From an archaeon (GTDB lineage: Archaea > Nanobdellota > Nanobdellia > Woesearchaeales > UBA9642), in NCBI GenBank assembly GCA_043806035.1, contig JAZDHK010000030.1, forward strand, positions 1 through 29,308: a stretch of 29,308 nt of DNA, in the 5' to 3' direction. Positions 781-22,592 of this stretch are shown here, piece after piece. How positions within the stretch are numbered: the stretch's first letter is position 1; every line of letters begins with the position of its first letter. Under the pieces are notes generated by a model that did not search any database, was not told where the DNA came from, and worked only from the letters and a program-made list of their open reading frames with translations. The translations under genes were made by a program, and so were the position numbers.

Positions 781-1620
781 TTATTTCCTCTTCCACATCC
801 TGAACGCTTCCATGAACTCTTCTAGCTCGACGTTCTGCTCTTCCTCAAAGACGGATTTCATCGACTTATGTACTTCCTTCGGGTCGTTGTGTATGTAGAC
901 TTGGGTACTTTTGAAGTCGAGGTGTCGGGCTAGTTTCTGCGTATGTATGGGATTCTTCGTCTTGGCATAAACCCGAGTTATGAAATAATGACGCAGGCTG
1001 TGCGTCGTTAAGCGGTGCAGTTTTCGTTGCGCTCTGTCTGGGTCTGTCTCTTGGCTTGTCCCGTAGGTGTCAGCTATTCCTATCTTCTCCGTCGTTTCTC
1101 TGAACTCCTTTCTGAGCCAGTGAGGACTTATGCACTTCCTGTCCTTTTGACAGCTAAAGAAGACATAACCGTCGCTGTCTGCTATCTTTTGCCTGTTCCG
1201 TTCCACCCATTCGTAGAGGTCTGCCCGTATCTTGTCGTGGATATAGAGTGCATCTAACGTCCTTGCCTTCTCTGTCCGTATGTATATTATATTACGTTGT
1301 GGGTCGATATCTTCCATTTTCATGTCCACAACTTCGCCCACTCGCAAGCCCAGAAATGCCATAGCTCTGAACGCCAATAGAGCCTTTTTGTTCGCACAAT
1401 TCGCAAAGAACAGGTCTAGCTCCTTCTGAGAGAAAGCCTTGCTTAACGTGCCATATTTGGGCTTTCCCGACCTGCCATACTTTCTTCTAGCCACATCCGA
1501 AAGAGTTTTTATCGCTTCTTCCAGCTCATGCTTAGTCAGGGAGTACACGTCCCGTCTGGGCGTATCTGAACCCAACAAAGCGGACATTCCACCGTCTATA
1601 ACGTTACTCCCGTCGACCAA
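781..1620 (-). CDS. Tyrosine recombinase/integrase, essentially catalytic domain only (alternative start ATG at 1587)
   Basis: Full catalytic set: GLRVGE (R), TEKART (K), HSLR (HxxR), ARH (H), STQVY (Y); lies immediately 3' of a tRNA gene. Confidence 0.92.
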   Translation of the reverse strand: MVDGSNVIDGGMSALLGSDTPRRDVYSLTKHELEEAIKTLSDVARRKYGRSGKPKYGTLSKAFSQKELDLFFANCANKKALLAFRAMAFLGLRVGEVVDMKMEDIDPQRNIIYIRTEKARTLDALYIHDKIRADLYEWVERNRQKIADSDGYVFFSCQKDRKCISPHWLRKEFRETTEKIGIADTYGTSQETDPDRAQRKLHRLTTHSLRHYFITRVYAKTKNPIHTQKLARHLDFKSTQVYIHNDPKEVHKSMKSVFEEEQNVELEEFMEAFRMWKRK

Positions 1621-1629: not shown

Positions 1630-1769
1630 TGGGGATGCAGGGATTTGAACCCTGATTCTGCGGTATCTTCATCCTTCACGGATATATACTAACACTTCTC
1701 TCATCGGCCGAAGCCTCGACGCTCCAGTTGCTGGAGCCGCATGTCCTAGCCTGGTTAGACTACATCCCC
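1630..1769 (-). tRNA. trnW: tRNA-Trp(CCA) with a 66-nt intron at 37/38 (exons 1769-1731 and 1664-1630); CCA end not encoded
   Basis: Acceptor GGGGATG/CATCCCC-A; D stem GTCT/GGAC; anticodon stem TGCGG/CCGCA with loop CT-CCA-G|A; T arm CAGGG-TTCAAAT-CCCTG. Confidence 0.95.
1665..1730 (-). ncRNA. tRNA-Trp intron; putative circularly permuted box C/D guide RNA for Cm34
   Basis: CTGGAGC (1727-1721) is antisense to tRNA nt 31-37; D'-like TCGA (1719-1716); GGC-TTCG-GCC stem; C'-like ATGAGAG (1704-1698); D-like GTGA (1679-1676); C-like ATGAAGA (1672-1666); the D+5 rule lands on C34. Confidence 0.72.
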
Positions 1770-1856: not shown

Positions 1857-2087
1857 TCAATTAGAACCGGGTAGATACTTCTTCTCAAGCAGCCCATTCA
1901 CGGTCTCGACGGGGTAGAGCTTGCCGAAAGGGACGGTGATGCAGTCGCTGACGTGCCTCGCATGATGGGCATGATACGGGAAGTAATGCTGCTTGCCCAA
2001 TTTCTCTTCTTCATGCAAGAGCACATCGAGATTACGCAGTTCTTTCGTTCGCCGCTGCATAAGCTGCATTGCTTCGTCAGGATTCAT
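1857..2087 (-). CDS. Small hypothetical protein (76 aa, MNPDEAMQLMQRR...)
   Basis: ATG at 2087 overlaps the TGA of the upstream gene (ATGA coupling); no recognisable motif; His-rich patch YHAHHARH. Confidence 0.55.
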   Translation of the reverse strand: MNPDEAMQLMQRRTKELRNLDVLLHEEEKLGKQHYFPYHAHHARHVSDCITVPFGKLYPVETVNGLLEKKYLPGSN

Positions 2088-4348
2088 CGTACGCGCAGCA
2101 GCCACAACAGGTAGATGCTGAGCAGGATGATCATGAACAGAGAAAGGTTTGTCCATTCACAATACGCGGTAATTCGCTGTAGGAACGTTGGAGAGGGCAC
2201 CTCTACCACTTCTAGGAGGAAATCCGTGCTGGACGTGCTTTCGGACACGACGTCCGTTGCCGTGAACGTAATGGTCTGTTTACCGTGCCAATTCCTTTCG
2301 GGGATAAGTTTTGCCGCATCCCTGTCTATGCTTGCCGTGATGTGGTCAGTCGCTGACGAAGAATACGTGAGCCTGCTGTTTTCTGGGCTGTAGAAGTAGT
2401 CGTTTAGAGATAGCGTCTTGTACTGGTTCTCATACCAGGCAATGTGCAGGGAGTCTGTTTCTGGAAGGGAAGGATACTGTAGATGAATCTTGACCATGAA
2501 TATTGCCAAGAATGCGGACAACAGCACAAAGACGACAAGCACTATCCAGAACGTCTTGAAGTACAGCCTATTCTCCTTCTTGAACTTCTTCGTCAGCCTG
2601 ATTTTTTTCATGGTGCATAAGCGCAGCACGAACAGGCAGGCGATGACGAGCAAGAGCACGTTGAAGAGCATGCAAGGATGCAGGACAAGATACTGGTATG
2701 CACGAATAAGGAAGGGTTGACGCGCAAGCCTCACTTTTACGGGCAGGTCATAGCTGTATGCATCGCTCTGGGCGTGTACCTTGACATCATACATGCCTTC
2801 TGTGCCATTGGGAGAGAAGAAGAGCAATACCTCTTTTTCCTCGTTAGGGCTGAGCGTTATCGTTGTTTCGTTCATGCTCGCCCAGGCTGGGCCGTCAAGG
2901 CTGAGGTCATAGGTTGCTGTTCTGTACGGGCCGTTCGTGAGCATGACTGACTTTTGTGAGGGATCGTATCCTATTCTGATGAGGTTTCCCTTGATGGAGA
3001 GTTGCCTGCACGCGTGTTCGGAAAGCAATTGCACGTCAAGCGTGTCACTTGTCCAAAAACCGTTTTCGAGGGAAGCATTCACGCGCAATGTGTAGTCGCC
3101 TTCAAGTTGAGGCTGGTCTTCAGTATCGACGATGAGGGTTGTGTTCTTCTCCTCCCCAGAATCGAGGATGACTTGTTCTTTCGTGAGTTCGGCAAAGGTA
3201 GGCCCTTGGAGCGTGAGTTTCACTGTTTCCGAAAAAGAACCATCATTTCGTATTAGCACGGGTAGTTCGTATGTTCCCGGGCAGGCAGTTATGCGCTCGG
3301 AAAGAATGTCCACGCGAGGATTGTAGCAGTTGCTGATCTGTGCATGGAGAGGGAGTGCTTGTTCTTTATTGAGGCTAGCGATGTGCATGGTCAGTTCATG
3401 ACCGCCTACGTCTCTGCTGTCTTCAGGATGTACTTTTACTGCGACGTGCTGTGTTTCTCCTGGTTCAAGATGCAATGCAGTGTGGTCGAGATAGAATCCG
3501 TTCTGTGTCGGTGCGTCCTGTTCTAGGGTGAAGGAGAAATCATTGGCGAAATGCAAAGGATTGTGCATATCAATCGTGTAGGTGTTTTCTTGGTTGAGAC
3601 AGACAGCAAATGTTCCATCGTGGCTAAGATCATATCCGTATTGGTCTTCGATGGTGATGTTTATGTCTTTCGTGGTTTGCAGCTTGTTTTTCTGTGCTTT
3701 TGCCGTAAACGTGAATTGCGTCTCACCATATGTTTTGCAGTCGAATGCGTATGCTATCTGGAATGTTCTGCTCTGGTTGGGCGGAAGCGATATTGGCTCA
3801 GCGGGCGTTGTTCGTGCATCATCATGGTTTGAGGTCAGCATGTACTCTTCAGGGAAAGATCCTGTGTTCTGCAGGGTTGCCTCAAAGGTGATGGGCGAGC
3901 AGGGTAGCACATAGTCCTGCACTGGCGCGATATTGAAGAGCAGGTTTTGGCATTGCTTGATGACTGCTTTTCTTTCCAACATCTTTGTTTTGCCCGTGCT
4001 CGATGCCACGATAACATGATAGTCGAGCGTTTTTTGCTGGCCGCACTCGCCACGAATGGTGAGCTGGACTAGTTTTGATTTTCCGGGCTGAAGCTCGAAT
4101 GTTCTCTCACTGACGAACACGTCATTGTCGACATTGACAGAGAATACGGAGGGGTACGTTCCCGTATTGGTCACCAAGAGCGTGTCCTGGTAGGATGTGC
4201 AGCTGCAGACGGTTGGATTGCTGCCTTCCATGGCGATGCTGAAATCTGTGCTCACACCATACAGCACGACGTCTATCCTTGCGTACGCTAGTGGAAAGAG
4301 CAAAAGTACAAAAATCGCAAGTAGTGCTGCATATCGCACACATACCAC
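2084..4348 (-). CDS. Secreted, membrane-anchored multi-Ig-fold (CARDB/NEW3-like) surface protein with three C-terminal-region TM helices
   Basis: Signal peptide (YAALLAIFVLLLFPLAYA); about five repeats of N-x-G...L-x-PGE; TM pair separated by a Lys-rich loop; cadherin-like domain; terminal TM. Confidence 0.85.
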   Translation of the reverse strand: MVCVRYAALLAIFVLLLFPLAYARIDVVLYGVSTDFSIAMEGSNPTVCSCTSYQDTLLVTNTGTYPSVFSVNVDNDVFVSERTFELQPGKSKLVQLTIRGECGQQKTLDYHVIVASSTGKTKMLERKAVIKQCQNLLFNIAPVQDYVLPCSPITFEATLQNTGSFPEEYMLTSNHDDARTTPAEPISLPPNQSRTFQIAYAFDCKTYGETQFTFTAKAQKNKLQTTKDINITIEDQYGYDLSHDGTFAVCLNQENTYTIDMHNPLHFANDFSFTLEQDAPTQNGFYLDHTALHLEPGETQHVAVKVHPEDSRDVGGHELTMHIASLNKEQALPLHAQISNCYNPRVDILSERITACPGTYELPVLIRNDGSFSETVKLTLQGPTFAELTKEQVILDSGEEKNTTLIVDTEDQPQLEGDYTLRVNASLENGFWTSDTLDVQLLSEHACRQLSIKGNLIRIGYDPSQKSVMLTNGPYRTATYDLSLDGPAWASMNETTITLSPNEEKEVLLFFSPNGTEGMYDVKVHAQSDAYSYDLPVKVRLARQPFLIRAYQYLVLHPCMLFNVLLLVIACLFVLRLCTMKKIRLTKKFKKENRLYFKTFWIVLVVFVLLSAFLAIFMVKIHLQYPSLPETDSLHIAWYENQYKTLSLNDYFYSPENSRLTYSSSATDHITASIDRDAAKLIPERNWHGKQTITFTATDVVSESTSSTDFLLEVVEVPSPTFLQRITAYCEWTNLSLFMIILLSIYLLWLLRVR

Positions 4349-4349
4349 C

Positions 4350-5612
4350 CTAATAATACGTCTGTGCCTCTTCCTTGTTGCCGCCTTCTCTGAGTTTCAT
4401 GAACCCGTAGATGAGCCCCACAAGGATGAGGATGATGACCAGGACGATGAGTGCAATCTCGAGTCCCTTACGGAGGTTATCGTTGGCTGACTTCTGACCT
4501 GGTGTTACTGTCGCAGTGAGGACAACCTGTTTTGTCTCTCCATTTGCGTCGATGCCTATGGTGAATATCTGGTCGCCTTCTGTTGCCTTGTCGTCTGCCG
4601 TGACGTACAAGTATGCTGTCTTGGTCTCGCCTGCGTTGATGACGATGAGGCTGCTCGGCTCAAGTCTGTACGTGCCCCAGCTCACGCCTGAAACGCTCAG
4701 CACGTAGGAGACTGCCTTGTTCGCGTTGTTCTTGATGATGACAGGATATGCCGTTCCTGTCGTTCCCTTTCTCACTTCGAGCTTCTGTGGAATGGTAATG
4801 GTGGTGAGCTCTTCCTCGTCAGGCGTGCTTGGCTGGTTCAGCGTGCAATCGCCGCTTGTGACAGTAATCTCAGAGGTTTGCGTGGTCTTTTCGTATTCGT
4901 CAAATTCTACGGTCATGACCACGTCGTACGTTCCTGGTTTGGTGCAGGCGGGGATGCGCAGGAGCAATTCCTCGAACGTTCGTGATTCGTCCGCTTCGAG
5001 CTCATCAAGATTCTCTGTATCAGAAACTCCTAAGTCGGGCATGGATACCTTGACCGTGATGTCTTTGAGTGTTTTATCGCCGTAATTCTTCACTTTGACG
5101 CTTCCCGTGATGGCTCTTCCTGCAATGACGCTTTCTGGTGAGAAGTGGAAGTCCTTGATCTGCACTGCGTCCTCTGTTGCAACGCCTGCGACGCGCAATT
5201 CATAGACTTGACTGATTTCCTGGCCGTCCCTATCTGCTGCCCTGATGCGCAGCTTGAAGTAGTCCGTGTCTATCTTCAAGGGTGCCTGCAGGCTCAAGCT
5301 GACGGTGTCAGAATCGTTCTCTTTGAGGTCGAATGTCCGGGAGGTGTCGGATACCTTGTCTTCTTCGTACGTCGAGTATCGATATCCGTAGATATCCGCT
5401 TCCACTTGCACATCATCAACATCAGTTAGTGCAAACACTTCGACGACGATATCGATGTCTTCCCCGCGATCGACGACAAAATTGTTGGAATGGCCGTCAG
5501 CTGGCGTGCGGTCTCTACCGTTGATTTCGACGCTAGAAATCTCGATGTTAGCGGCGCTGACAACGCCCATGAGCAAGATCAACGCACACAAAACGATGAT
5601 GCTTTTTTTCAT
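4350..5612 (-). CDS. Secreted Ig/CARDB-like domain protein with C-terminal TM anchor and acidic ...EEAQTYY tail (candidate S-layer/envelope protein)
   Basis: Signal peptide MKKSIIVLCALILLMGVVSA; three beta-sandwich domains; TM IALIVLVIILILVGLIYGF; own strong promoter. Confidence 0.85.
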   Translation of the reverse strand: MKKSIIVLCALILLMGVVSAANIEISSVEINGRDRTPADGHSNNFVVDRGEDIDIVVEVFALTDVDDVQVEADIYGYRYSTYEEDKVSDTSRTFDLKENDSDTVSLSLQAPLKIDTDYFKLRIRAADRDGQEISQVYELRVAGVATEDAVQIKDFHFSPESVIAGRAITGSVKVKNYGDKTLKDITVKVSMPDLGVSDTENLDELEADESRTFEELLLRIPACTKPGTYDVVMTVEFDEYEKTTQTSEITVTSGDCTLNQPSTPDEEELTTITIPQKLEVRKGTTGTAYPVIIKNNANKAVSYVLSVSGVSWGTYRLEPSSLIVINAGETKTAYLYVTADDKATEGDQIFTIGIDANGETKQVVLTATVTPGQKSANDNLRKGLEIALIVLVIILILVGLIYGFMKLREGGNKEEAQTYY

Positions 5613-5652
5613 AGTTCCTTACCCCCAGATTGTTCTTTTCGTAGTTCCTCGA

Positions 5653-5669
5653 TATTTATAAAACTTTCG
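5653..5669 (-). promoter_or_regulatory. Consensus BRE + TATA promoter for the 5612 gene
   Basis: Minus strand CGAAAGTTTTATAAATA, followed by GGGGGTAAGG before the ATG. Confidence 0.75.
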
Positions 5670-5690
5670 TAAATAACCATTATGGAGTGA

Positions 5691-8600
5691 TTACTTTTTA
5701 CACACATTGCAGGTCTTGTCTGTAACGAGGACAGGCACGTATTTGGCACGCGTCACCTTACCATTGCTAATGCTGACATGTGCCTCGTATTCTCCAAGAG
5801 GAGCGTCATCCATGAGCACGAGGAGTTCATATGCCTGCCGCTTTCCCTTGCCCAGATCATACGCACCCGTCTTTGCCTTGATCGCCAGTTCTGGAATAAC
5901 TACCGTCATGCGCACATCCTTGATCTTGTCTTCTTCATTCTTGACGAGCGCATACACCATAAGATCCTCTCCTTGCTGGACAACGAATGGCTCTTGTTCC
6001 TGGCTGCCGTACGCGTCTAATTGCAGTATGCTGAGCATTCCTCTTTCATCAACGACTTGTTTTGCTGTACTACGTTCGACTATCCTGTACGTCGCCATTG
6101 CCATGTCTGTTCTACCGTACTGATCTCTGACCAGCAAGGTTACAGGGAACTGGCCAATGGTGCTGAACGTCGTGTCAAGATACGGCACGATTGTCGTTAG
6201 CACGCTGTTCTGCACCTGCCACGTATATGTCAGATTTGTTCCTTGACTCTGCTCGCCGTTGATGCGCACGACTTCATTGATGAATCCTGTGAATGGTGGG
6301 CTGAGAACTGCATCGAGCGGTCCTGGAGCGACAACGTGGATGCGTATGTCTGCGCTTGATTCTTCACCTTGTGCATCAACACACTGCATCCTCACCTGAT
6401 ATGTATTTGGCTCATCTATCGTGGTGTGAACGGTGTACCCTTCTCCAATAACACCTTTGCCTACAATGCTCCACGTGCCAGGGAATTGCCCTTGCTCCGC
6501 ATCGGTGCAGTAGCCTGTAAAGGTTATGGTTTGTCCGGTGATGAATGTAGATTCATCCTCTGGTGAGGTAATGACTGCCTGCGGGGCTTCGTTCAGATGC
6601 TGGACGCAGAGGTTGACATCTTCCGCATCCGTGAACTCACCATCACTAACAGAAAATTGCACAGCATACGTTCCTGCCTGTCCTTGCTGTGTGTTCCAGG
6701 AGAACGTCTGCTGGGTAAACTGTGCGCCTGAAGGCAGATCTGTTGCCGAATACACGAGTACATCACCATCTGGGTCTGAAGCGCTGACGGAGAACGTTAT
6801 CGTTTCCCCTTCTGTGACACAGGCAGGGTCAGCAATGGGATAAAAGACGGGCGGTCTGTTGCCTTGCAGCACGCAGAGCGTTATCGTCTGTTGTGTTTCC
6901 AGTTGGCCATCGCTTGCCGTGAAGACAATGGTGTAATTGCCTGGCTGTGTGGGTGTCCAGTCGAATGTGCCTTGTTGGAAGACTGCTCCTTCAGGCAATG
7001 ACGCTGCAGTGATAGTTACTGCATCGCCGTCAGGATCTGAAGCTGAAACGGTGAAGTGTATTATTGTGCCGACAGGGACGCAGCCGAGTTCAGGCAAAGG
7101 ATCAAATATGGGTGCGTGATTTTCCTGCGCTAGCACGTCGACTCGCGCATCTGTCGTGTCCGCAAGCTGGCCATCGGAGACGAGAAGGAAGACATCATGC
7201 CGTCCTGGCGTCGTGAACGTGTGCTGGACAATACGCCCTTCTGTCTCAAATACGCCGTCGTCGTTAAGATCCCACGCATACTGAACGAGAGGGTCGTTGT
7301 CTCGATCATAGCTTCTCGAGCCGTCGAATGTTATGCGTTCATTAACGCGTGGCAGGATTGGCGTGTAGTTGATGACGGCAGTTGGCTCCCTGTTGAGGTT
7401 GAGCACGCAAAGAACAGTACCTATGCTGACGCGTGCGTGGCCATCACTCACCGTGAACGTGACGGTGTAATTGTCCGCCTGGTCATAATCAGGCGTCCAA
7501 GAGAAAAGCTGGTCGGTAAAAGATGCGCCGCGAGGGAGTGCTGACGTAGTGTACGTGAGCTCATCTCCATCCGCATCGTATGCAGTCACGAGGAACGATA
7601 ACAAACGACCTTCTTGTACGCAGCCGGGGGCAGAGAATGTAAACACGGGAAGGGTATTCTCTGCAGCGATTACCTGAACGAGGAGGGCTTCCTCTGCAGT
7701 GTCTCCATCAAGGTCTTGCACGCTGACCGTGACGGTTGCGTTGCCTTCCTGCAGTGCAGTGATGTGGAGTGTGGTGCCTATAATCCATGCAGTTATGGCA
7801 TCGCTAGTTTCACGTACAGACCACTGTAGGTTGTGTTCGTCTTCAATGTCATGCCCACTGAGATGGATGCTGATACTCTCTCCACTGTGGAGTTGTTGTG
7901 CGGGAAGGGGATCTATTGTCGGGGGATTGTTGAATATGAGTATTGCTGTCTGGGCTTCCCCTCCTACATTGTTGTCAAAGACGAAGCTGAACACGAATCC
8001 TTCTCCGAGGAAGTCGTGCGTTGGAGGGATAGGCAGGGCGGCATATCTATATGCGTGTCCTGCATTGCCTACTGCACGTAATCTTAGGCGTCCTCCTGTT
8101 CTGGGGCTGACCAGGTCAACTTCTGCAGGCAGGTTATCCACGTACTGGCCTTTGCTGTCCCGTACATTGAAAGAGACGTACAATGGCTCGTTCCTGTAAA
8201 AGATCGTGTCCGGATGCATGAATAGGGAGTCGTTGAATGTGCTTAAGCCAGTGATGGTGTACGTTTCCGCAAGAACGGTGAATGTGAACGGTCCTGCTGT
8301 ACCATCAGGATAGTGTTGTTTCGTTGCCGTTGCATAGATGGCATACTCTCCCAGGTCGTGCATGGTGCGTAGTGCGCTGCAGCCTCCGGAAAGGCTGTCT
8401 GTGGTGCACGTGCCAAAGATGGCTCCGTTCGCGAAAGAGAACGTTACGCTTGCTCTCGCGACAGGCATATCGTGGTCATCGATGACACGTGCCTGGCAGC
8501 TTTGGTTGTGATGTTGGATGACCCTGTCGAAGCAGGAGAGCTCGACATGGAGTGTCGCACTGACGGTGAATGTCTTTGTCTCACCATCTGATGCGCTGCC

Positions 8601-11600
8601 GTCAAAGACGAGCAGTCGTGCCGTGTACGTTCCGGGTTCTGTGTAGGTTCGGTGCACGATTCTTCCCGTATCATCCCAATTTCCATCACCGGTGAAATCC
8701 CAGTAGTAGAGCAGCAGGTCATTATCGGGATCTGAACTTGCCGTTGCATCGAACGTTATGCTGCCTGTAGCTGGGTGTTCTGGACTGATGGTGAAGTCAG
8801 CATGAGGTGGTCGGTTCGTGTTCAGCACGTGGATGGTGATTGTCTCGTTGTCCGTGAGTTGCCCATCAGAGACAATGAAGGTAATAGGATAGTCGCCTGC
8901 TTGATCATAGCTTGGTGTCCAGGAGAATGTTCTGTTGTTGAACGTGCTTCCTTGCGGCAGCGTATGTGCGGTGTAGTACAAGGCATCATTGTCAGGGTCT
9001 GTTGCATGTATGGTAAAGGAGAGTGTGTTTTCCTCCTGCACCGTCTTGTCGCCTATGGGCTGCAGGACGGGAGGGTGGTTGCCTCCTTCTACACTGATGG
9101 TGTGCTCGACAACATTCCAGGCACGGCCATCACTGACGTTCAAACGGACAACATGTCCGCCCGGTAGAGGGAAGCTGTGTAAGACGATGCGTCCCGTGCT
9201 CTCATAGTTGCCATCGTTGTTGAAATCCCATGCGTATTGCAAGAGATCACCATCGGGGTCAGTGCTATCGGTAGCGTTAAAGAGTACGGTTTCGCCAACG
9301 AGTGGATGTGCTGGTGTGTACGTGAATTGGGCAATGGGTACATGGTTTTCTCCAGGGATGACATGCACTATCATGACTGCTTCATCCTGGTCGAGATCAA
9401 GATCCTTGAGGGTGAGCGCCAACTGGCCGCTTCCTGTGAATTGCGGTGTGAGGGTGAGTTGCTTCCCCTGCAAATCTGCAAGGAAGGGAACGGGAGGCAG
9501 AGGCTGTACTATGCTCCACGTGAGGTTCGTGCCTCTGTCTTCTAGATCATGCTCGTATTCGCCCAAAAATATGGTTTGCGGATGTCCTGTGGTCAAGGTT
9601 ATGGCTGCTGGCAGGTTCACGATCTGCGGCGGATTGTTGAGGATGGTGATGTTCGTCGATTTTTGGTCTCCTGCCGTGTCTGTGTAATTGATGTAGAACG
9701 CGAAGACTTCTCCTGTGCCGATGAAGTCGTGCGTTATGGGTATTGGCCTGAGGCCGAATCGATAATGCCCGTCGAAAAAGCCTAGGCTGTCAAGGGTGAT
9801 ACGTGCCCCTGTCGCTATGCTAATGAGCGTGACTGATGTGACCACGTCCCTCGTTTCCGGGTCGTCAAGGGAATTTCTGATGCCGAACTGGACGTACAAG
9901 TCCTCTCCTCTAAAGAAGGTGTCGTCGACGTGCATGAATACTGAGTCGTTGTACGTATGCAAGTCGACGATGGTGTACCGTCTCGGGACGACAGCGAAGG
10001 AAATGTTTGGTGTTGCGTCCAGATCAGGCAGATATCCTTGCAGTTCTGCATGAGCGTACGCAGTGTAGACGCCAAGCGTGGACAGGGTGAGTCTGACGAT
10101 GCATCTGCCCTGGTCGTTTGTCATACACGTTTTGCTGATATTTGTCGTGCCTGTGTTTGCAAAGAAGGTGATGGTCGCATCAGACAGTGCCTGTTGCAGG
10201 GCTATCGTGCACACTTGCTCACTGTGTTGGATGACGACGGGGAAGCAGTCGATAGCGGCGACGCTCAACTGCTGTACTGCACTTACCAGGACGTTGTGGA
10301 TGACGGTCGTGTTCGCTTGTCCGTCAGAGACGACGAGCCGCACCGCATACAGGCCCGCTTCGAATGTGTGCGTGCTCGTATTGCCTGTTGCATCGATGCT
10401 GCCGTCGTTTGTGAAATCCCATGCGTACGTGAGCGGATCATGGTCTGGATCGGCGGCAGTCGCGTGGAAGGTGACTGGTTCTCCACTAACCGGATGTTCA
10501 GGAGTGAAGACAAAGTCTGCCACGGGTGGTCTGTTTATGATTGGCAACACGCTCACTTGCCGCATCCTATACGTGTAGTTCGTGCCGTCAAAGACGCGCA
10601 ACAGCACAACATATGCAGGATCAGGTCTCGTGAACACGTGCGTTGCTGTTCTGCCGTGAGCATCCCATGTGCCATCATTATCGAAGTCCCAATCGAATGT
10701 CAGCGGATCATTGTCTGGGTCGTGGCTGAAGGTGACGTTGAAAAGGGTGGTTTCGTTGACGTGCGCTGGCTGAGGCGTGTAGTTCCATTGGGCGTCTGGA
10801 GGTCGATTCGTGTTGAGAACGGTGATGCGAATGGCCTCGTAGTCGTATGCCTGACCATCTGAGACGTTGAACAAGACACCAGCATACACGCCCGCCTGGT
10901 TGTAGTTGGGTGTCCAGCTGAATGTCCTCGTTGTTGGGTTAAACGAGGCGCCTGTAGGCAAATTGCCTGCGTTGAACGACAAAGGATCGTCGTCTTCGTC
11001 AGTAGCGGAAATGACGAAAGACAGCAAGGCACCCTCGGCGATAGTCTTGTCACCTATGGGCTGCAGGACGGGTGGGTGATTGGGAGATGTCTCAACGATG
11101 AGCGTTCTGTTCGTGAACACATACTGTCCTCCTTGGCCGACACGCAAGGTAACCACGTATGTTCCTTGAGCAAATGCGTGTGTCGTGTTCACGCCGTACG
11201 CATCGACGTAGCCGTCGCTCGTGAAATCCCATGCGTAGCTCGTGATGGGTCCATCGACGTCAAAGCTCGATGAGGCATCGAAGAAGACCTCCTGCCCACT
11301 GACGGGATGGACAGGTGAGTATGTGAATTGCGCATATGGTGGTTGCGGTACGTTGGTGACGGTTATAGTTACGTTTTCTCTGTCCTCAAGGAAGCCGTCG
11401 CTGGCGACGAATGTGACAACATATGTTCCTGCTTGATCATATCCTGGCGTCCACGTGAACAGTCCATATCTTCCCATACGTGAGCCTCTTGGTGCATTGG
11501 GTGCAGTGATGTCGACGCAATCCCAATCATCACAATCAGGATCCTCAGCAACAATCTGCAAACTTATCGATTCCCCCTCAGCAACCGTAATAGGAGGGAT

Positions 11601-12761
11601 TGGCTGTATGACGGGTGCGCGGTTGACATCAGTGACCGTTATCGTGAGATTTTCTCTGTCCTCAAGAAGACCATCGCTCGCGACAAACATAATAACGTAC
11701 GTTCCTGCCTGATCATATCCTGGCGTCCACGTGAACAAGCCATATCTACCAATGCGCGAACCAACAGGAGCATTGAGTGCAGTAATGTCAACGCAATCCC
11801 AATCATCACAATCAGGATCCTCAGCAACAATCTGCAAACTTATCGATTCCCCCTCAGCAACCGTAATAGGAGCGAGAGGCTGTATGACTGGCGGTCGGTT
11901 CACATCAAAGACGGTGATGATTATGGTTTCATTATCAGAAAGCAGGCCATCTGATGCTGAAAAGGTAACGGTGTATGTTCCTGCTTGCTCGTACGTTGGC
12001 GTCCAAATAAAGGTATTGCCGTTGAGCTGCGCACCGTACGGGAGTGGATTGGCACTGAATGTGATGTTGTCATCGTTAGGATCGGTAGCATTGAGAATGA
12101 TAGTGAGCGTCTGTCCTTCGTCGACTTGTTTGTTGCCGATAGTATAGAGTGTGGGGGGCGCGGAAGGATAGTGAACGGTGATGAGTGGCGTTTGGACGAG
12201 CATGGCGTCATTGTCGCTGTCTCTCACGAGGCAGGATGCCTGATGAATACCCGGGTCATACGTTGCCGTGACAACCTGTCCCGTCATGTCAATCATATCA
12301 TCTCCGTTCGTGTCCCATCTGAATGAGAGGGGAGGGTTGCCGCCTGTTGCCGAGCAGGACAATGTCACCGTGAGTGGGGCTGTGCCTTCCAAAGGAGTTG
12401 CTGTTGCTATGACATTTGTGAGTGGAATTTCATCATGATTGCACACGCCGTCACCATCAGTATCTGTACATCGTATGGTTACTTGGTCTGTTGCTGCAGG
12501 CACGTAGAATCCTGGATAGTAGACATCACACCGCCACACTTCGTTTTCGATCGTGTTTCCTGAGGGAATGTAGTCTGTGGTGAATCCGCTCTGCCACTGG
12601 TTGTTCCTATACCAGAGATAGATGAAATTTCCCCATTCATCAACTTGGCAGAGAAGGCTGTGCCCCTCATCGGGTTCGTTGGGGAGTATTTCCGCGTGGA
12701 GCGCCGCGACGCTCGTCGTGAGCAAGGTGAGGATGAGAAAAAATGCGAATGCTGATTTCAT
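5691..12761 (-). CDS. Giant secreted surface protein/adhesin (2356 aa) with many PKD and putative-Ig/cadherin-like domains
   Basis: Start reassigned to ATG 12761 (GGAGG upstream, ATGA overlap, signal peptide MKSAFAFFLILTLLTTSVAA); repeated PKD motifs (Y-x-WDF-xx-DG, V-x-L-x-VSDG) and cadherin-like motifs (N-x-PP, A-x-DPD, FSWTP-x-Y-x-QAG); many N-x-S/T sequons; no C-terminal TM. Confidence 0.92.
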   Translation of the reverse strand: MKSAFAFFLILTLLTTSVAALHAEILPNEPDEGHSLLCQVDEWGNFIYLWYRNNQWQSGFTTDYIPSGNTIENEVWRCDVYYPGFYVPAATDQVTIRCTDTDGDGVCNHDEIPLTNVIATATPLEGTAPLTVTLSCSATGGNPPLSFRWDTNGDDMIDMTGQVVTATYDPGIHQASCLVRDSDNDAMLVQTPLITVHYPSAPPTLYTIGNKQVDEGQTLTIILNATDPNDDNITFSANPLPYGAQLNGNTFIWTPTYEQAGTYTVTFSASDGLLSDNETIIITVFDVNRPPVIQPLAPITVAEGESISLQIVAEDPDCDDWDCVDITALNAPVGSRIGRYGLFTWTPGYDQAGTYVIMFVASDGLLEDRENLTITVTDVNRAPVIQPIPPITVAEGESISLQIVAEDPDCDDWDCVDITAPNAPRGSRMGRYGLFTWTPGYDQAGTYVVTFVASDGFLEDRENVTITVTNVPQPPYAQFTYSPVHPVSGQEVFFDASSSFDVDGPITSYAWDFTSDGYVDAYGVNTTHAFAQGTYVVTLRVGQGGQYVFTNRTLIVETSPNHPPVLQPIGDKTIAEGALLSFVISATDEDDDPLSFNAGNLPTGASFNPTTRTFSWTPNYNQAGVYAGVLFNVSDGQAYDYEAIRITVLNTNRPPDAQWNYTPQPAHVNETTLFNVTFSHDPDNDPLTFDWDFDNDGTWDAHGRTATHVFTRPDPAYVVLLRVFDGTNYTYRMRQVSVLPIINRPPVADFVFTPEHPVSGEPVTFHATAADPDHDPLTYAWDFTNDGSIDATGNTSTHTFEAGLYAVRLVVSDGQANTTVIHNVLVSAVQQLSVAAIDCFPVVIQHSEQVCTIALQQALSDATITFFANTGTTNISKTCMTNDQGRCIVRLTLSTLGVYTAYAHAELQGYLPDLDATPNISFAVVPRRYTIVDLHTYNDSVFMHVDDTFFRGEDLYVQFGIRNSLDDPETRDVVTSVTLISIATGARITLDSLGFFDGHYRFGLRPIPITHDFIGTGEVFAFYINYTDTAGDQKSTNITILNNPPQIVNLPAAITLTTGHPQTIFLGEYEHDLEDRGTNLTWSIVQPLPPVPFLADLQGKQLTLTPQFTGSGQLALTLKDLDLDQDEAVMIVHVIPGENHVPIAQFTYTPAHPLVGETVLFNATDSTDPDGDLLQYAWDFNNDGNYESTGRIVLHSFPLPGGHVVRLNVSDGRAWNVVEHTISVEGGNHPPVLQPIGDKTVQEENTLSFTIHATDPDNDALYYTAHTLPQGSTFNNRTFSWTPSYDQAGDYPITFIVSDGQLTDNETITIHVLNTNRPPHADFTISPEHPATGSITFDATASSDPDNDLLLYYWDFTGDGNWDDTGRIVHRTYTEPGTYTARLLVFDGSASDGETKTFTVSATLHVELSCFDRVIQHHNQSCQARVIDDHDMPVARASVTFSFANGAIFGTCTTDSLSGGCSALRTMHDLGEYAIYATATKQHYPDGTAGPFTFTVLAETYTITGLSTFNDSLFMHPDTIFYRNEPLYVSFNVRDSKGQYVDNLPAEVDLVSPRTGGRLRLRAVGNAGHAYRYAALPIPPTHDFLGEGFVFSFVFDNNVGGEAQTAILIFNNPPTIDPLPAQQLHSGESISIHLSGHDIEDEHNLQWSVRETSDAITAWIIGTTLHITALQEGNATVTVSVQDLDGDTAEEALLVQVIAAENTLPVFTFSAPGCVQEGRLLSFLVTAYDADGDELTYTTSALPRGASFTDQLFSWTPDYDQADNYTVTFTVSDGHARVSIGTVLCVLNLNREPTAVINYTPILPRVNERITFDGSRSYDRDNDPLVQYAWDLNDDGVFETEGRIVQHTFTTPGRHDVFLLVSDGQLADTTDARVDVLAQENHAPIFDPLPELGCVPVGTIIHFTVSASDPDGDAVTITAASLPEGAVFQQGTFDWTPTQPGNYTIVFTASDGQLETQQTITLCVLQGNRPPVFYPIADPACVTEGETITFSVSASDPDGDVLVYSATDLPSGAQFTQQTFSWNTQQGQAGTYAVQFSVSDGEFTDAEDVNLCVQHLNEAPQAVITSPEDESTFITGQTITFTGYCTDAEQGQFPGTWSIVGKGVIGEGYTVHTTIDEPNTYQVRMQCVDAQGEESSADIRIHVVAPGPLDAVLSPPFTGFINEVVRINGEQSQGTNLTYTWQVQNSVLTTIVPYLDTTFSTIGQFPVTLLVRDQYGRTDMAMATYRIVERSTAKQVVDERGMLSILQLDAYGSQEQEPFVVQQGEDLMVYALVKNEEDKIKDVRMTVVIPELAIKAKTGAYDLGKGKRQAYELLVLMDDAPLGEYEAHVSISNGKVTRAKYVPVLVTDKTCNVCKK
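11349..11900 (-). repeat. Tandem 276-bp (92-aa) domain duplication inside the giant adhesin
   Basis: Units 11900-11625 and 11624-11349; 82 bp identical at 11515-11596 and 11791-11872. Confidence 0.9.
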
Positions 12762-14272
12762 AGTCTGCCTCCGACCATGCGGTAGAGGTCGATGTCTGTG
12801 CCTATGCTTATGTTGATCTTGCCCCAATAGTTCTTTTCCGCATGTACTGGTCCTGCATCGAAGTTTGTCAATGTGTGTCCGTACGTGCATCCGATAATAA
12901 GTGGCTTGACAGGCATGATGTTGACGCTTCCCACGTATTCATGGACATTGCCTTCCTCAGGGAAGCCTTGCTCGTGTTGCAGACGAGAATATGCTGCAGA
13001 GCCTGCAATGTGCAAGGGAATGCCAAGCGTAAAGCCTATGCCAAGCTGTCCTCTGTACGTGGTGAGTTGTTGCTTTGATGTTGGATCAAACCACGGATTT
13101 GTAGGGTCTGTTGTTATGGGTTGGCCTTCATACGTGTGTTTTCTCTGCGCTCGCATATATTCTGCAGCGGCATCAACGAAGGAAGCATGCTTGATCTGGT
13201 CAAACCATATGCGTTGTCCTACGCCAAGACCTCTGCACGTCGTCGTTACCTTTTCTGTTCTGTGCACGCCGTGCACTCCCAGATAGTCGACAGGTTTTGC
13301 AGATGCGTCTCTGCCAAGGATGCCATATGTCCTGAATCCTTTGAAGCCAATGCCTCCTCGGATTTGTTCGGCATCGTGTCGTGCAGTGTAGCTGCCAAGC
13401 GTGTTGTCCTTGCAGTCCTTGATGATGCCGTTCTTTCCCCAGTCCAGGGCTGCATTGCCGTGCAGGTAGAGTGTCCATGCCCTGTCCTTGAGGGCAAGGA
13501 TGCCTTCCACTGTAGGTCCTGCATTCCAGTCACTGTAGGTTGTTCTCGTGTTGCAGGGGAAGACGGGCAGGGCATAGTCATCCTGGAGCCATTGGCCTGC
13601 CGTGATGCCAATCGTTCCTCCTGCATGAAGAGACGTTGAAGGAGGTTCTGGTGTTTGTTGTTCCAGAGTTGCAAACGCGGTGAGCACATCCAAGTAGACG
13701 ACGTTCAGTTCGAGGGCAAACATTCTATCTTCAAGAGTAGTGATGCGCTGCTCATGATTCTCTGCTATGTCGATGAGCGTGTTGATCCTGCTGATCATTA
13801 TGTTGTAGTTCTCGATGGAGAGTGGAAGCGCGACATCTCTTCCTTTTGCAAAGGAGACGTTTCCTCCAAGCAGTGCTAGTTTTGTACGTAGTGCCTTGTC
13901 AAAGTACAGCGTATCCGGAGGAATGCTGTCGTTGCCTATGTTGAGTATGTCTCCTCTAATGCCGTCCTTTCCTGAGAAGGTGGAATCATTGCGTACGAAG
14001 CGTACGTCCTTGTTGAGCCGCTGCCAGTTCTTGTCAGTCCAATATCTTTTTTGGGCATCGACGATGACGTTGCAGGCTTCGGGGAGATTCTGTTCAGGGA
14101 TGTGGATGAAGTCTTTTGCTATGTTCCAGAGCTTGTTCCCGCTCTGTACGGTGTAGTCCTGCGTTTGTGTAAGGGGTTGCGGTTGCAATTTGTCGGGTAT
14201 GTGTATTGGTTCCTGCGCAAACGTGCATGCTGCTGCACCGAGTACGAATGTAGAAACAAGAGACTTCATCAT
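12758..14272 (-). CDS. Secreted protein: signal peptide, LysM-like segment, coiled coil and C-terminal beta-rich (predicted beta-barrel) domain
   Basis: Start reassigned to ATG 14272 after GAAGGGGGT; YTVQSGNKLWNIAK resembles the LysM start; heptads ...ENHEQRITTLEDRMFALE; alternating Gly/aromatic amphipathic strands over the last ~290 aa. Confidence 0.75.
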   Translation of the reverse strand: MMKSLVSTFVLGAAACTFAQEPIHIPDKLQPQPLTQTQDYTVQSGNKLWNIAKDFIHIPEQNLPEACNVIVDAQKRYWTDKNWQRLNKDVRFVRNDSTFSGKDGIRGDILNIGNDSIPPDTLYFDKALRTKLALLGGNVSFAKGRDVALPLSIENYNIMISRINTLIDIAENHEQRITTLEDRMFALELNVVYLDVLTAFATLEQQTPEPPSTSLHAGGTIGITAGQWLQDDYALPVFPCNTRTTYSDWNAGPTVEGILALKDRAWTLYLHGNAALDWGKNGIIKDCKDNTLGSYTARHDAEQIRGGIGFKGFRTYGILGRDASAKPVDYLGVHGVHRTEKVTTTCRGLGVGQRIWFDQIKHASFVDAAAEYMRAQRKHTYEGQPITTDPTNPWFDPTSKQQLTTYRGQLGIGFTLGIPLHIAGSAAYSRLQHEQGFPEEGNVHEYVGSVNIMPVKPLIIGCTYGHTLTNFDAGPVHAEKNYWGKINISIGTDIDLYRMVGGRL

Positions 14273-14344
14273 GCTATTACCCCCTTCAGTGGAATGAGCA
14301 ACCACCACAATTACAATTACTCACCGAAAAAGAGTAACATTCCA

Positions 14345-14359
14345 TATTTAAAGTTTTCG
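14345..14359 (-). promoter_or_regulatory. BRE + TATA promoter for the barrel/adhesin operon
   Basis: Minus strand CGAAAACTTTAAATA upstream of 14272. Confidence 0.65.
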
Positions 14360-14426
14360 CAGAAAGTCGACGATTATCTGCAAAAAAAAAGAAAACGCTA
14401 AAAAGGGAAGCGCTTTGCAAAAGTGC

Positions 14427-15497
14427 ATGATTCTCATCAGCGGGGGAGGCATCGTCGGCAGCCATCTGGCTACACGCATCGCCAGACACGATGATGTTCG
14501 AGTCGTGGAGGAACATGATAATTTTCACAAAACCTGCTCTGCGCTCATCACCACACCCAATGACATTCCCAGACAATTCATCACCAACCGCATCCGTACA
14601 GCAAGAATCATGGCGCCTGACGGCAAGTGCATTGAAGTCACGTTCAAACGGCCTGACGTTGTGTTCGCACGAGATGAATACGTTGCCTATCTTGCAGGCA
14701 AAGCACAAGACGCTGGCGTGCAGTATTGTCAGCCGGCAAAAATCAGGAGCGTCACAAAAAAAGTGTGTGTAGAGGATTTGCGGACGAAACAACGACAAAT
14801 GTTCATGCCCGACCTGCTTGTGGGGGCGGATGGCGCATTGTCTACCGTGGGCAAAGAAACAGGACTACTACAACAGCGCACGCATTTCGTCGCCACAAAA
14901 ACGATAGTGAAGTACAAGCACAACAACAGCATCACGTTCTATCCGTTCGTGAGGGATTTTGCATGGGTCATCCCACACGATGAGGACACGGCAGAAATAG
15001 GTATTGCTGCAAGGCAAGACGTCAGCAGGACATTCACTGCATTCTGCCAGCGCCTCAACATCACCCCCGCAAAGCGGGAGGCAGCAATCATCCCGTGGTA
15101 TAGTGCAAAGCAGCCCATCTACAAACAACAAGGAAACATGCACGTTGCTCTTGTTGGCGATGCTGCCGGACAGGTAAAGGCGACGACGGGAGGCGGCATC
15201 ATCTATGGCATGAAAGCTGCGATCATTCTTGCTGACTGCATACGCAAAGACAAGCTGCACGCGTATCCTCGACTTATAAAAAAGAACATAGGCAGAGAAC
15301 TATCCTTGCACCTGCAGGCGCGCAGGCTCATGGATAAGATGACCATACCTGATTGGAATAGGGCAATAGCTCTTTTTCAGGACTCACGGCTACAGAACGT
15401 GTTGGGAAACAGTAGCAGAGACCGGTTATCGAGACTTGCGTTCAAAAGCATAGTCACCAAGCCGCAATTGCTCCAGTTTGCAAAACTCCTTTTTTAG
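14427..15497 (+). CDS. Geranylgeranyl reductase family FAD-dependent oxidoreductase
   Basis: N-terminal GGGIVG, GADG, FAWVIP, VGDAAGQVKATTGGGIIYG; start reassigned to ATG 14427. Confidence 0.88.
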   Translation: MILISGGGIVGSHLATRIARHDDVRVVEEHDNFHKTCSALITTPNDIPRQFITNRIRTARIMAPDGKCIEVTFKRPDVVFARDEYVAYLAGKAQDAGVQYCQPAKIRSVTKKVCVEDLRTKQRQMFMPDLLVGADGALSTVGKETGLLQQRTHFVATKTIVKYKHNNSITFYPFVRDFAWVIPHDEDTAEIGIAARQDVSRTFTAFCQRLNITPAKREAAIIPWYSAKQPIYKQQGNMHVALVGDAAGQVKATTGGGIIYGMKAAIILADCIRKDKLHAYPRLIKKNIGRELSLHLQARRLMDKMTIPDWNRAIALFQDSRLQNVLGNSSRDRLSRLAFKSIVTKPQLLQFAKLLF

Positions 15498-15509
15498 CTC
15501 ATCCGCAGC

Positions 15510-16202
15510 TTAGTTCACGAGTTTCTTCAAGAGCATATCTTTGAAGACCTTGAGCGCTTGCCGTACACCACCATGGCCCTTGCGCAAGGTCTCATCAGAA
15601 TAATGAATGATGACAGGGATCTCTTTGTAGCGCAACTTCTTCAATTTTATCTGTTCAGTAATCTCTGAGGCGTGTGCCATGCGGTCACAGGTGATGTCGA
15701 TGAATTGCGCCGCTTTTCTTGAAAAGACCCTGAATCCATTATGTGCATCCGTGAGCTTGATGCCATAAAAGACGCGCTGCACAAAAATGGCCATCTTCAA
15801 AGTTATTCTTCTCAACAAAGGAACGTTGTCCCGCTTGTACAAGAATCTGCTGCCCAACGTAACGTCAACCTGCCCTGAAAGCACGGGCTTGAGCATGGCA
15901 GGCAGGTCCTGCACGCGATGCTGGCCATCAGCATCAAACGTCACGATTACTCTCGCACCATTGGCCAAGGCATAATCTATGCCCGTTTTCAATGCAGCAC
16001 CTTGCCCTAGATTGATGGCGTGATGCAACACGATGGCTCCTGTCCGTTCTGCCCGTTCGAGCGTGCGGTCTTCAGAGCAATCATCGACAACGACAACACG
16101 CGCATATCCTGCCTTGCGCAAACTTCTGATAACTCCCGCTATCGCCCGTTCTTCATTAAATGCCGCAATAACAATCCAAATGTACTGCAGTCGTTCCTTC
16201 AT
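15510..16202 (-). CDS. GT2 polyprenol/dolichol-phosphate glycosyltransferase (DPM1-like)
   Basis: AAFNEE, VVVDDCSED, NLGQGAA, TFDADGQH, GSRF, TDAHNGFR; start at ATG 16202 overlapping the upstream TGA. Confidence 0.9.
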   Translation of the reverse strand: MKERLQYIWIVIAAFNEERAIAGVIRSLRKAGYARVVVVDDCSEDRTLERAERTGAIVLHHAINLGQGAALKTGIDYALANGARVIVTFDADGQHRVQDLPAMLKPVLSGQVDVTLGSRFLYKRDNVPLLRRITLKMAIFVQRVFYGIKLTDAHNGFRVFSRKAAQFIDITCDRMAHASEITEQIKLKKLRYKEIPVIIHYSDETLRKGHGGVRQALKVFKDMLLKKLVN

Positions 16203-16543
16203 TGGATGATGAGCACCACGCCGAGGATGATGCACAGTATTCCCGTCCATTTCAAGAGATTCATTCGCTCTTTTAAAAATTTTGTTGAGAGCAAAGCCAC
16301 CCAGATATAGGAAAGACTAGTGATAGGATAAAGGATGGACAATTCGCTGAACTGTAGCGCATACACGAAAACAATCGTCGAGATGCCGTGCAAGCCAATG
16401 CCAAACAGGAGCGGGACATGCCGTTGCAGTTTGAGTACGTTCTGTAGGGTGAGCGTCGCGGCACCTTTCTTGAGCAGTACGCTGGCATACGCTCCAACAA
16501 TAGTCAAAACGGCAACGAGAATCATTGCCCAAAGCGGTGTCAT
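16199..16543 (-). CDS. SMR/EamA-like 4-TM protein (ArnE/ArnF-like flippase subunit)
   Basis: 114 aa, four hydrophobic helices, ELSILYPITSLSYIW...FLKE motif. Confidence 0.82.
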   Translation of the reverse strand: MTPLWAMILVAVLTIVGAYASVLLKKGAATLTLQNVLKLQRHVPLLFGIGLHGISTIVFVYALQFSELSILYPITSLSYIWVALLSTKFLKERMNLLKWTGILCIILGVVLIIQ

Positions 16544-16899
16544 GCACTACCACTTCCGACTAACGCAACGCCAATACCTATGGCGAGAACGCCCAAGACT
16601 GAGAAGAACGTGTATGGCTCATGCAGCATGAATGCAGAGAGGAGAAACACCCAAATGAAGGAGAGCGCAAAGAACGGATACACAACGGAGAGCTCTCCAT
16701 ATTTGAGCGCAAGTATGAGCAGGCAAGCACCGACAGCATACAGGAACAACCCCGTAAGTAGAGGCAGGTTGGTGAGCAGTTGTTGTAGGTTAAAAGCGAG
16801 TTGTACAGATCCTCGTTTCAGGAAAAATTGCGCTCCCGCCGTTGAGAACGTACTGAGTACAACGAGGAAAAGCGCGAGAGGTCTAGTTCGTGCTTTCAT
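16540..16899 (-). CDS. SMR/EamA-like 4-TM protein (ArnE/ArnF-like flippase subunit)
   Basis: 119 aa, AQFFLKRG and GELSVVYPFFALSFIW...LHE motifs; paralog of the neighbour. Confidence 0.82.
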   Translation of the reverse strand: MKARTRPLALFLVVLSTFSTAGAQFFLKRGSVQLAFNLQQLLTNLPLLTGLFLYAVGACLLILALKYGELSVVYPFFALSFIWVFLLSAFMLHEPYTFFSVLGVLAIGIGVALVGSGSA

Positions 16900-19792: not shown

Positions 19793-19824
19793 AGGACACC
19801 CCTTGCGCCACAAGTTCTATATGG

Positions 19825-20043: not shown

Positions 20044-20050
20044 CCCTTGC

Positions 20051-22590: not shown

Positions 22591-22592
22591 AG

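Follow-up and report, generated by a model that had tools for sequence, protein, structure and literature searches.

The question raised by the locus described here is whether a giant repeat protein and a barrel-like protein, encoded together in an archaeal genome, form an apparatus for attachment to another cell or belong to the envelope of the cell itself. The locus is found on contig JAZDHK010000030.1 of an archaeon of the order Woesearchaeales (assembly GCA_043806035.1). This stretch of DNA, here termed the window, is the entire 29.3-kb contig (29,308 nucleotides (nt), contig C30) of genome G000, a 1.5-Mb genome in 42 contigs that is 93.7% complete. The contig is archaeal. Five open reading frames (ORFs) are located on its minus strand and are co-directional, in the places where an earlier sequence-only reading had put them. 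These are the barrel-like gene X (protein P0001), the gene L for a giant 'adhesin' (protein P0002), two genes for smaller proteins, S and P, and an ORF of 76 amino acids (aa). The sequence-only reading had proposed a host-attachment or envelope-spanning system. The analysis presented here makes it moderately probable that the genes X, L, S and P form an envelope operon of the cell itself.

Linkage of the genes in related genomes

The genome set consists of 61 genomes, i.e. G000 and 60 relatives. Up to 20 kb around the S gene was taken from 54 loci of the relatives, and 53 of these contained S by BLAST. A large PKD/Ig protein of the L type, recognized by BLAST similarity to P0002, is encoded directly upstream of S on the same strand in 33 of 46 evaluable loci. 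An ortholog of P is present no more than three genes downstream of S in 38 of 51 evaluable loci (it is absent from 13, and two loci are cut). Upstream of L, 27 of 28 loci have a same-strand gene for a protein of 266–953 aa that belongs to no known family. This position is termed the X slot. It is empty only in locus L039, and five loci are cut at this point; in two of these, another contig was found to carry X and, after it, the beginning of a large protein. The distance from the X stop codon to the L start codon ranges from −4 to 136 nt in 20 pairs. A distance of −4 nt, which is that of the ATGA overlap in the window, is also found in L023, L043 and L049. The translational coupling of the barrel-like gene to the adhesin gene that had been described from the window is present.

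The five genes had been expected to remain together in related genomes. This holds for the X slot, L, S and P, whose homologs are linked, and not for the 76-aa ORF. Since that ORF is not conserved, the conserved unit is the four-gene cluster X-L-S-P beside glycosylation genes, without a fifth ORF, and a five-gene unit was rejected. Within the stretches fetched, at least one of the genes for AglB, an ArnE/F-like protein and a family 2 glycosyltransferase (GT2) is present in 31 of 53 loci, and for AglB itself the count is 23 of 53; contig ends interrupt many of these loci. In the window AglB (STT3, E-value = 2e-34) is encoded at positions 16883–19813, which is 2.6 kb from X and agrees with the earlier placement of aglB within a few kb.

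Two transcription units are plausible from the sequence. An element resembling a TFB recognition element and TATA box (BRE/TATA), GAAA-N-TTTATAAATA, is located about 56 nt before the ATG of S and lies inside the 78-nt gap between L and S. The pattern occurs at three sites in the window when both strands are searched: before X, before S and at 743, outside of the cluster. It precedes the S orthologs in 34 of 51 loci of the relatives, compared to 25 of 2120 random 130-nt windows. The second promoter that had been suggested for the downstream genes is consistent with this conservation.

The S and L proteins

S is matched in 58 of the 61 genomes, mostly by one strong match of 410–470 aa. Its sequence is similar to the NCBIfam family NF033506, 'PACE-CTERM-PROT, putative S-layer protein' (E-value = 2e-28, 99.3 bits), over profile positions 223–616 of 627. 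S is without the first ~220 positions of the profile, and the function of the family is itself putative. Pfam domains of S are NEW3/CARDB, FixG_C and DUF4625, which are beta-sandwich families, and hydropathy analysis displays a signal and a C-terminal transmembrane segment at positions 386–404. S is a putative base or S-layer-type coat protein. Because S is nearly universal in these genomes and resembles a putative S-layer protein, the cluster looks like the coat of the cell itself and not like the special host-attachment apparatus that had been proposed. In one metatranscriptome study S-layer protein genes, possible orthologs of S, are reported among the ten most expressed genes of Woesearchaeota (PMC11606122).

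The cytoplasmic tail of S ends with Tyr-Tyr. These residues are invariant in 51 sequences (alignment A4, the window and 50 loci; consensus TYY) and could be a sorting or interaction signal.

L is composed of repeats. Fifteen Pfam families are found in P0002, among them PKD, PKD_4, He_PIG, Big_9 and cadherin-like domains. Hydropathy analysis shows an N-terminal signal-like segment only, in keeping with the Sec-type signal noticed before, and no anchor. The sequence carries 31 sequons compared to 17.4 ± 3.7 in 500 shuffles, which bears out the earlier remark that sequons are many. Counterparts of L in the relatives are 553–2225 aa in length and their repeats differ. L is absent beside S in 13 loci, and seven of the 53 loci are cut by a contig end. 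This variation in length, together with the absence beside S in 13 of 46 loci, argues for L as an outer protein that is accessory and variable, and against L as the lattice itself.

The last ~120 residues of L can be aligned across the neighbours of S in 33 relatives and display an 'IPELG' motif. Most L proteins stop right after this domain; a few have Cys-rich tails (CNVCKK in the window) and three have a transmembrane helix. A profile of 29 L tails compared with domain 2 of the S family (residues 137–254) gave an hhalign probability of 99% and an E-value of 5.7e-18. By this profile comparison the C-terminal domain of L is homologous to domain 2 of S, i.e. it is a paralog, and from this we infer that L docks on an S array through its tail domain. 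In G000 the tail profile is strong only at the end of L (independent E-value (i-E) = 6.5e-32). It is weaker in S (domain i-E = 2.2e-13) and in a 538-aa protein on contig C38 (domain i-E = 5.3e-07), and three further ORFs of 407–626 aa show marginal matches (whole-protein E-values 3e-08 to 2e-03). None of the other G000 proteins of 900 aa or more was matched. The profile has matches in 56 of the 61 genomes.

G000 has eight further open frames of 2201–7054 aa, on contigs C29, C5, C33, C41, C20, C19 and C13, and none of these carries the L-tail domain. Relatives encode frames of about 117–131 aa that consist of the IPELG domain alone, e.g. G027:C1:14042–14299, G053:C14:17107–17349, G030:C20:782–1027 and G037:C1:23124–23396. 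The products may serve as free caps, or may compete for the docking site.

Proteins of the X slot

The slot proteins have a common design: a signal is followed by a head that varies, then by a linker of low complexity and a beta-rich tail, whose last residue is often Phe or Tyr. Their sequences fall into groups that cannot be aligned with one another even within one genus; X evolves far faster than its neighbouring genes. By hhalign, slot family A compares with family B at a probability of 88%, and B with C at 55%. A word-indexed homolog search with A2, a slot alignment of eight rows, returned the query alone, and A2 matched 8 genomes among 401 genomes of the order. At loci L015–L025, in genus g3, the slot is filled by at least two profile-related families and by singletons; S at these loci is 45–51% identical to S of the window. 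The slot protein of G035 (L032:13976–15445, minus strand) displays an SH3_3 domain at its head (E-value = 1e-8) and a weak GW-domain match. The SH3_3 head is another wall-binding-type module in the X slot.

The fold of the tails was modelled from an alignment of the last 200 residues of 21 slot proteins, which were selected by eye. AlphaFold2 (AF2) gave a mean predicted local distance difference test score (pLDDT) of 88.9 and a predicted template modelling score (pTM) of 0.77. Foldseek comparison of the model with the PDB gives OmpA, Ail, OmpX, OprF, NspA and OmpW, with E-values down to 6e-7. There are 87 matches at E ≤ 0.001, and all 38 of those listed are outer-membrane or designed transmembrane barrels. 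In VIA-align the Z score is 14.6 with OmpA (root-mean-square deviation 2.6, 127 residues) and 13.4 with OprF, and transmembrane barrels span Z 11.8–14.6. The Atlas model of P0011, the first protein of the alignment, has template modelling scores (TM-scores) of 0.62–0.71 to OMP_b-brl, Opacity and Ail/Lom models. Three slot proteins match PF13505 at 17–24 bits, under the gathering cut-off of 28.7. Gly is frequent in the strands, one face of which is hydrophobic, and the hairpins are long. In most slot proteins the tail is predicted from these models to be an 8-stranded antiparallel barrel of OmpA/OmpX-like fold. A home-made strand-alternation score gave no separation of barrels from Ig domains and was dropped.

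Textbooks limit the outer-membrane beta-barrel class to diderm bacteria and organelles, where BamA is needed. The class has not been described from archaea: the literature searched, with subscription journals and supplements outside of its coverage, gave no account of outer-membrane-type barrels, or of an X-L-S-P operon, in DPANN archaea. The 'barrel' passage of one preprint concerns the PRC-barrel (bioRxiv 10.64898/2026.05.13.725050).

The X protein of the window

P0001 matches no Pfam family (E ≤ 0.01) and no NCBIfam family. A single full-length homolog, P0003 (E-value = 7e-18, 25% identity end to end), was found among 1.84 billion representatives. The word-indexed search with P0001 returned the query alone, and scans for related loci with A1 and with P0003 gave no loci among genome contigs and metagenome contigs. 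The composition of the P0001 gene is native to the genome: GC content at third codon positions (GC3) is 0.549, which is within the genome value of 0.596 ± 0.077, and the total GC content likewise matches. P0001 is not a conserved family; what is conserved is the slot and the design.

The head of P0001 shows a half-match to LysM (PF01476), in which residues 40–63 align with profile positions 1–23 of 43 (E-value = 0.011, 16.9 bits compared to a cut-off of 20.9). Sequence searches of the PDB gave no significant match; the best one to the joint profile of P0001 and P0003 is the LysM effector Ecp6 (4b8v), at a non-significant E-value of 0.044. Over the 401 genomes of the order the joint profile has N-terminal matches only (profile positions 29–205) and none to the barrel. 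Two of these matches are clear, in G079 and G080, and cover the head. Heads of the P0001 type are also found in membrane-anchored proteins of these two genomes and in P0005 and P0008, and one relative of the head is labelled Bacteroidota by its source. A helical linker is suggested by a low-confidence AF2 model (single sequence, pLDDT 31).

The ESM Atlas model of P0001 aligns with autotransporter beta-domains and one SLAM barrel in 10 of 10 rows, with TM-scores by query of 0.61–0.70 over 240–258 residues. Its feature neighbours in the Atlas are unnamed bacterial clusters (0.94–0.95 for the best three of 30), and the nearest clusters that bear a Pfam family (0.89–0.91) include Tsx channel and Phage_OMP. 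By sequence P0001 does not match PF03797. The prediction for the C-terminal part of X is a beta-barrel of the bacterial outer-membrane type. The description of the first gene as 'barrel-like' is upheld by this predicted fold and has no Pfam or NCBIfam family match behind it.

The P protein and the 76-aa ORF

P displays Pfam matches to FixG_C, Cep192_D3, HYDIN/VesB Ig-like and Big_9, and hydropathy analysis shows a signal and three transmembrane segments at positions 559–577, 601–619 and 735–753. A signal-like N-terminus is found by hydropathy in all four large proteins, X, L, S and P. The two membrane-anchored Ig proteins of the sequence-only reading are recognizable in S and P, which have both transmembrane segments and Ig-type domains.

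The 76-aa ORF is open and its GC3 of 0.62 is coding-like. It overlaps P as had been reported, but it has no Pfam or NCBIfam match and no credible homolog in the 60 relatives; two marginal matches elsewhere have E-values of 0.006 and 0.008. The ORF is doubtful and is outside of the conserved cluster.

Comparison with known systems and a model of the envelope

In Sulfolobales the slaA gene for a large anchorless glycoprotein is followed by slaB for a smaller, C-terminally anchored protein (PMC5744192). The genes L and S show the same organization, as they are adjacent and co-directional, and a large anchorless protein precedes a smaller beta-sandwich protein with a C-terminal transmembrane helix. 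A SlaA or SlaB family is not among the Pfam and NCBIfam matches, no direct comparison with SlaA/SlaB sequences having been made. There are also differences. S is without a coiled coil; the length of L ranges from 553 to 2356 aa, and 13 of 46 loci have no L beside S, features not expected of a lattice subunit; L has a domain paralogous to one of S; and the locus has two extra conserved genes, X and P, and a separate promoter for S.

The slot barrels are comparable to the small 8-stranded outer-membrane barrels, i.e. the N-terminal domains of OmpA and OprF, OmpX, Ail and NspA (OMP_b-brl, PF13505). The likeness is in the predicted fold of the C-terminal domain, in the single hydrophobic face, the long hairpins and the frequent terminal Phe or Tyr. 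The slot barrels differ in that their hosts are archaeal, BamA was not found in the 61 genomes, scores are under the Pfam cut-off, and the barrel is C-terminal behind a variable head. The barrel of P0001 differs further, since it looks 12-stranded and is unrelated in sequence. OmpM of diderm Firmicutes and SlpA of Deinococcus consist of a wall-binding domain, a linker and a barrel, and are tethers between membrane and wall (PMC10628300, PMC9388160). P0001 has a comparable design, with a head of putative wall-binding type, an extended linker and a predicted beta-barrel, and a coiled coil is suggested by the low-confidence model; however its head is LysM-like with no SLH match in Pfam, its barrel is smaller, and the likeness is one of design.

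The moderately probable reading is that the locus is the cell's own envelope operon X-L-S-P, with a SlaA/SlaB-like organization and a fast-evolving barrel tether. It would be the local copy of an operon that is conserved in this order of small-genome DPANN archaea (Woesearchaeota/Pacearchaeota-like) and that is usually found next to the AglB N-glycosylation genes. Gene order, linkage, domain homologies and predicted folds are what the sequence analysis shows. The contacts between the proteins in this model are proposed ones, as are the location of the barrel and a lattice role for S. S, expressed from its own strong-looking promoter, would be exported and held in the cell membrane by its C-terminal helix, with its stacked beta-sandwich domains forming the anchored base of the coat. 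L would be exported by its own signal, glycosylated, and docked onto or into the S array by the paralogous domain of ~120 residues. Its repeats would be displayed outward, as SlaA is on SlaB or as in an S-layer-associated adhesin. P, with an Ig ectodomain and three membrane helices, may be an accessory anchor. X would be transcribed with L, translationally coupled to it, and exported. It may act as a tether, in which a glycan- or wall-binding head is joined to a barrel anchor embedded in a lipid or protein layer and made without BamA. The logic would be that of OmpA in reverse domain order, resembling OmpM/SlpA, and X would hold or position L in the envelope.

Several observations weigh against this envelope operon. 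L is absent from beside S in the loci noted above, and where L-type genes are found away from S a barrel-type neighbour is seen in 0 of 7 loci, the A3 hidden Markov model being too weak to find barrels there. The score of S is under the curated cut-off of 110 for NF033506, and S carries one sequon. Seven of the 27 slot proteins do not display a barrel-like tail by eye. Omp85/BamA (PF01103) is found in 0 of the 61 genomes, including G000, and seven control diderms are positive. Soluble 8-stranded barrels also match the AF2 slot model, at Z 8–11.5. The barrel of P0001 comes from one language-model structure with a whole-protein pLDDT of 0.58, and the AF2 model of P0001 alone is unusable at pLDDT 31. 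P0001, with P0003 included, has no relation to the slot families of the relatives (hhalign probability ≤ 0.2%). It is thus a positional and architectural counterpart of the slot proteins, and may be a replacement rather than an ortholog. No outer membrane is known in these archaea. A two-membrane reading was reported for ARMAN cells (PMC4243693), and for a cultivated Micrarchaeon such a reading was revised to an S-layer (bioRxiv 10.1101/2021.04.28.441871).

Alternative explanations

Two alternatives concern the nature of the barrel, and each is judged rather unlikely. The slot tails may be soluble barrels of the fHbp, TbpB, NHBA, avidin or lipocalin type, which would give a secreted coat protein a module for binding or for structure and would not be embedded in a membrane. 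Neither an outer membrane nor BamA would then be needed, the Z scores of soluble barrels are substantial, and the alternation heuristic could not tell barrels from Ig domains. On the other hand transmembrane barrels score higher and occupy all listed Foldseek rows, the structure neighbours of P0001 and P0011 in the Atlas are outer-membrane families, slot proteins have sub-threshold OMP_b-brl sequence matches, and Gly is common in the strands, which are hydrophobic on one face, with Phe or Tyr at the terminus. Conversely, and with about the same low likelihood, the barrels may be truly membrane-inserted and of bacterial type, made without BamA and located in a second lipid layer, which may be an as yet undescribed outer layer of the archaeon's own or the membrane of a partner. 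X and L would then be a cross-envelope attachment device on the S-layer. This partner could be a diderm bacterium, in view of the LysM-like and SH3b-like heads and of a wall peptidase of the VanY type in the genome. The VanY-family domain (D-Ala-D-Ala carboxypeptidase type) is encoded at G000:C16:31490–31903 on the minus strand and is above the Pfam cut-off; the SLT family PF01464 was not found in G000. The host-attachment apparatus in its full form, with S and P as anchors, L as a long and possibly Ca-stiffened stalk and the X barrel inserted in the membrane of a partner cell, is unlikely to a somewhat greater degree. X proteins diverge beyond alignment within a genus, as is expected for parts that face a partner or a virus; their heads resemble wall- or glycan-binding modules (LysM-like in the window, SH3_3 in L032); G000 encodes the peptidase; an archaeon without BamA makes a foreign membrane conceivable; and L is long, variable and anchorless. 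However, S is nearly universal, mostly with one strong match per genome, and S-layer-like, the conserved end of L is homologous to S and not to X, nothing links X to the distal end of L, and no host is known. Also, delivery of a monomeric OmpA-type barrel into the membrane of another cell is not known.

The order of a barrel gene and a giant repeat protein gene, tightly coupled, is reminiscent of two-partner secretion (TpsB/TpsA), as noted before. That system was rejected, as no Omp85 (PF01103) or POTRA is present on P0001 and no two-partner secretion (TPS) domain is among the 15 Pfam families of P0002; the doubt expressed earlier, on the ground that no POTRA was visible, was well placed. A broader form of this explanation, in which the X barrel exports or displays L across an outer layer (by two-partner secretion, as SLAM with surface lipoproteins, or as a split inverse autotransporter of LysM, 12-stranded barrel and Ig passenger), is very unlikely. 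It is favoured by the coupling and by the Atlas model, whose region ~205–492 aligns with both autotransporter (PF03797) and SLAM (PF04575) barrels, and a LysM-like head, a barrel and an Ig-repeat partner bring intimin and invasin to mind. Against this, there is no sequence match to the Omp85/POTRA, TPS, PF03797, PF04575 or inverse-autotransporter families, a TPR domain is lacking, and LysM is sub-threshold. Unlike in a classical or inverse autotransporter, the repeat protein is encoded apart from the barrel, by an ORF that has a start and a signal of its own. The one slot barrel modelled, and 20 others by alignment, are 8-stranded and of OmpA/OmpX type, and such barrels are too narrow inside to let a polypeptide through. 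L is without a lipobox, and there is no known second membrane to be crossed. Finally, P0001 could be foreign to the operon, by recent bacterial acquisition or as an assembly chimera upstream of L, because it is a near-orphan with a single full-length homolog, has a head relative labelled Bacteroidota, and has only bacterial neighbours in the Atlas. This is extremely unlikely, since its GC and GC3 fit the genome, its stop codon overlaps the start of L, 27 of 28 relatives have a protein of this design in the slot, and the head is present in two genomes of the same order (G079 and G080). A public sequencing run contains 64% of the sampled words of the window; it may be the source sample and is not independent support against a chimera. 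No RNA run is among the public runs listed as containing words of the window.

Features of the window

The features of the locus are collected in Table 1. Outside of the cluster, a tRNA gene of ~140 nt is located at positions 1630–1769 (minus strand) and probably has an intron of ~70 nt (Rfam RF00005, 48.5 bits; it was missed by ARAGORN). Directly after it is a tyrosine recombinase gene at 781–1620 (minus strand; Phage_integrase, E-value = 6e-18), which is XerA-like at 77 bits, far under the cut-off of 220. The GC content drops to 0.39 beyond the recombinase gene. An integrated element that continues past the contig end may have its border here. At the other side, positions 20033–29234 (plus strand) hold an eight-gene sugar cluster of lower GC content (0.42–0.49). 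It encodes two GT4 glycosyltransferases, a B12-binding radical SAM enzyme, a DegT-type aminotransferase, two NAD epimerase/dehydratases, a glycoside-hydrolase-like (alpha/alpha)6 protein and a UDP-GlcNAc 2-epimerase, and probably makes the glycan that is transferred by AglB.

Table 1. Coordinates of the X-L-S-P locus and its surroundings in the window
Feature	Positions	Strand	Basis or remark
Flanking genes: geranylgeranyl-reductase-family (+); GT2, two ArnE/F-like small membrane proteins, AglB (−)	14415..19813		Pfam/NCBIfam
BRE/TATA-like element of X, putative promoter	14341..14358	−	GAAAACTTTAAATA motif, 86 nt before ATG
X (P0001), barrel-like gene, 504 aa	12758..14272	−	ORF and translation
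Head domain of X, residues ~36–126, LysM-like with ~45-residue insert	13895..14167	−	Sub-threshold sequence matches
Predicted 12-stranded outer-membrane-type beta-barrel of X, residues ~205–492	12797..13660	−	ESM Atlas model
ATGA stop/start overlap of X and L	12758..12761	−	TGA of X overlaps ATG of L, read from sequence
L (P0002), 'adhesin', 2356 aa	5691..12761	−	ORF and translation
C-terminal 'IPELG' domain of L, last 130 residues	5694..6083	−	Proposed docking domain
BRE/TATA-like element of S, putative promoter	5651..5668	−	GAAAGTTTTATAAATA, 56 nt before ATG, then GGGGGT ribosome-binding-like site
S, 420 aa	4350..5612	−	Begins 78 nt after L
P, 754 aa	2084..4348	−	Begins 1 nt past S stop
76-aa ORF	1857..2087	−	ATG overlaps TGA of P as ATGA

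Significance

Nothing is known experimentally of the envelope of Woesearchaeota/Pacearchaeota-type archaea, a group that makes up a large part of archaeal diversity. The operon names candidates for the base of the coat (S), for a variable glycosylated outer protein (L) and for the joining of the two by a shared domain. It adds a conserved slot for proteins that are predicted to fold like bacterial outer-membrane barrels. If these barrels are membrane-embedded, the questions become whether the archaea or their partners supply a second membrane, and how the barrels fold without the beta-barrel assembly machinery (BAM). Both questions are directly testable with the sequences described here.

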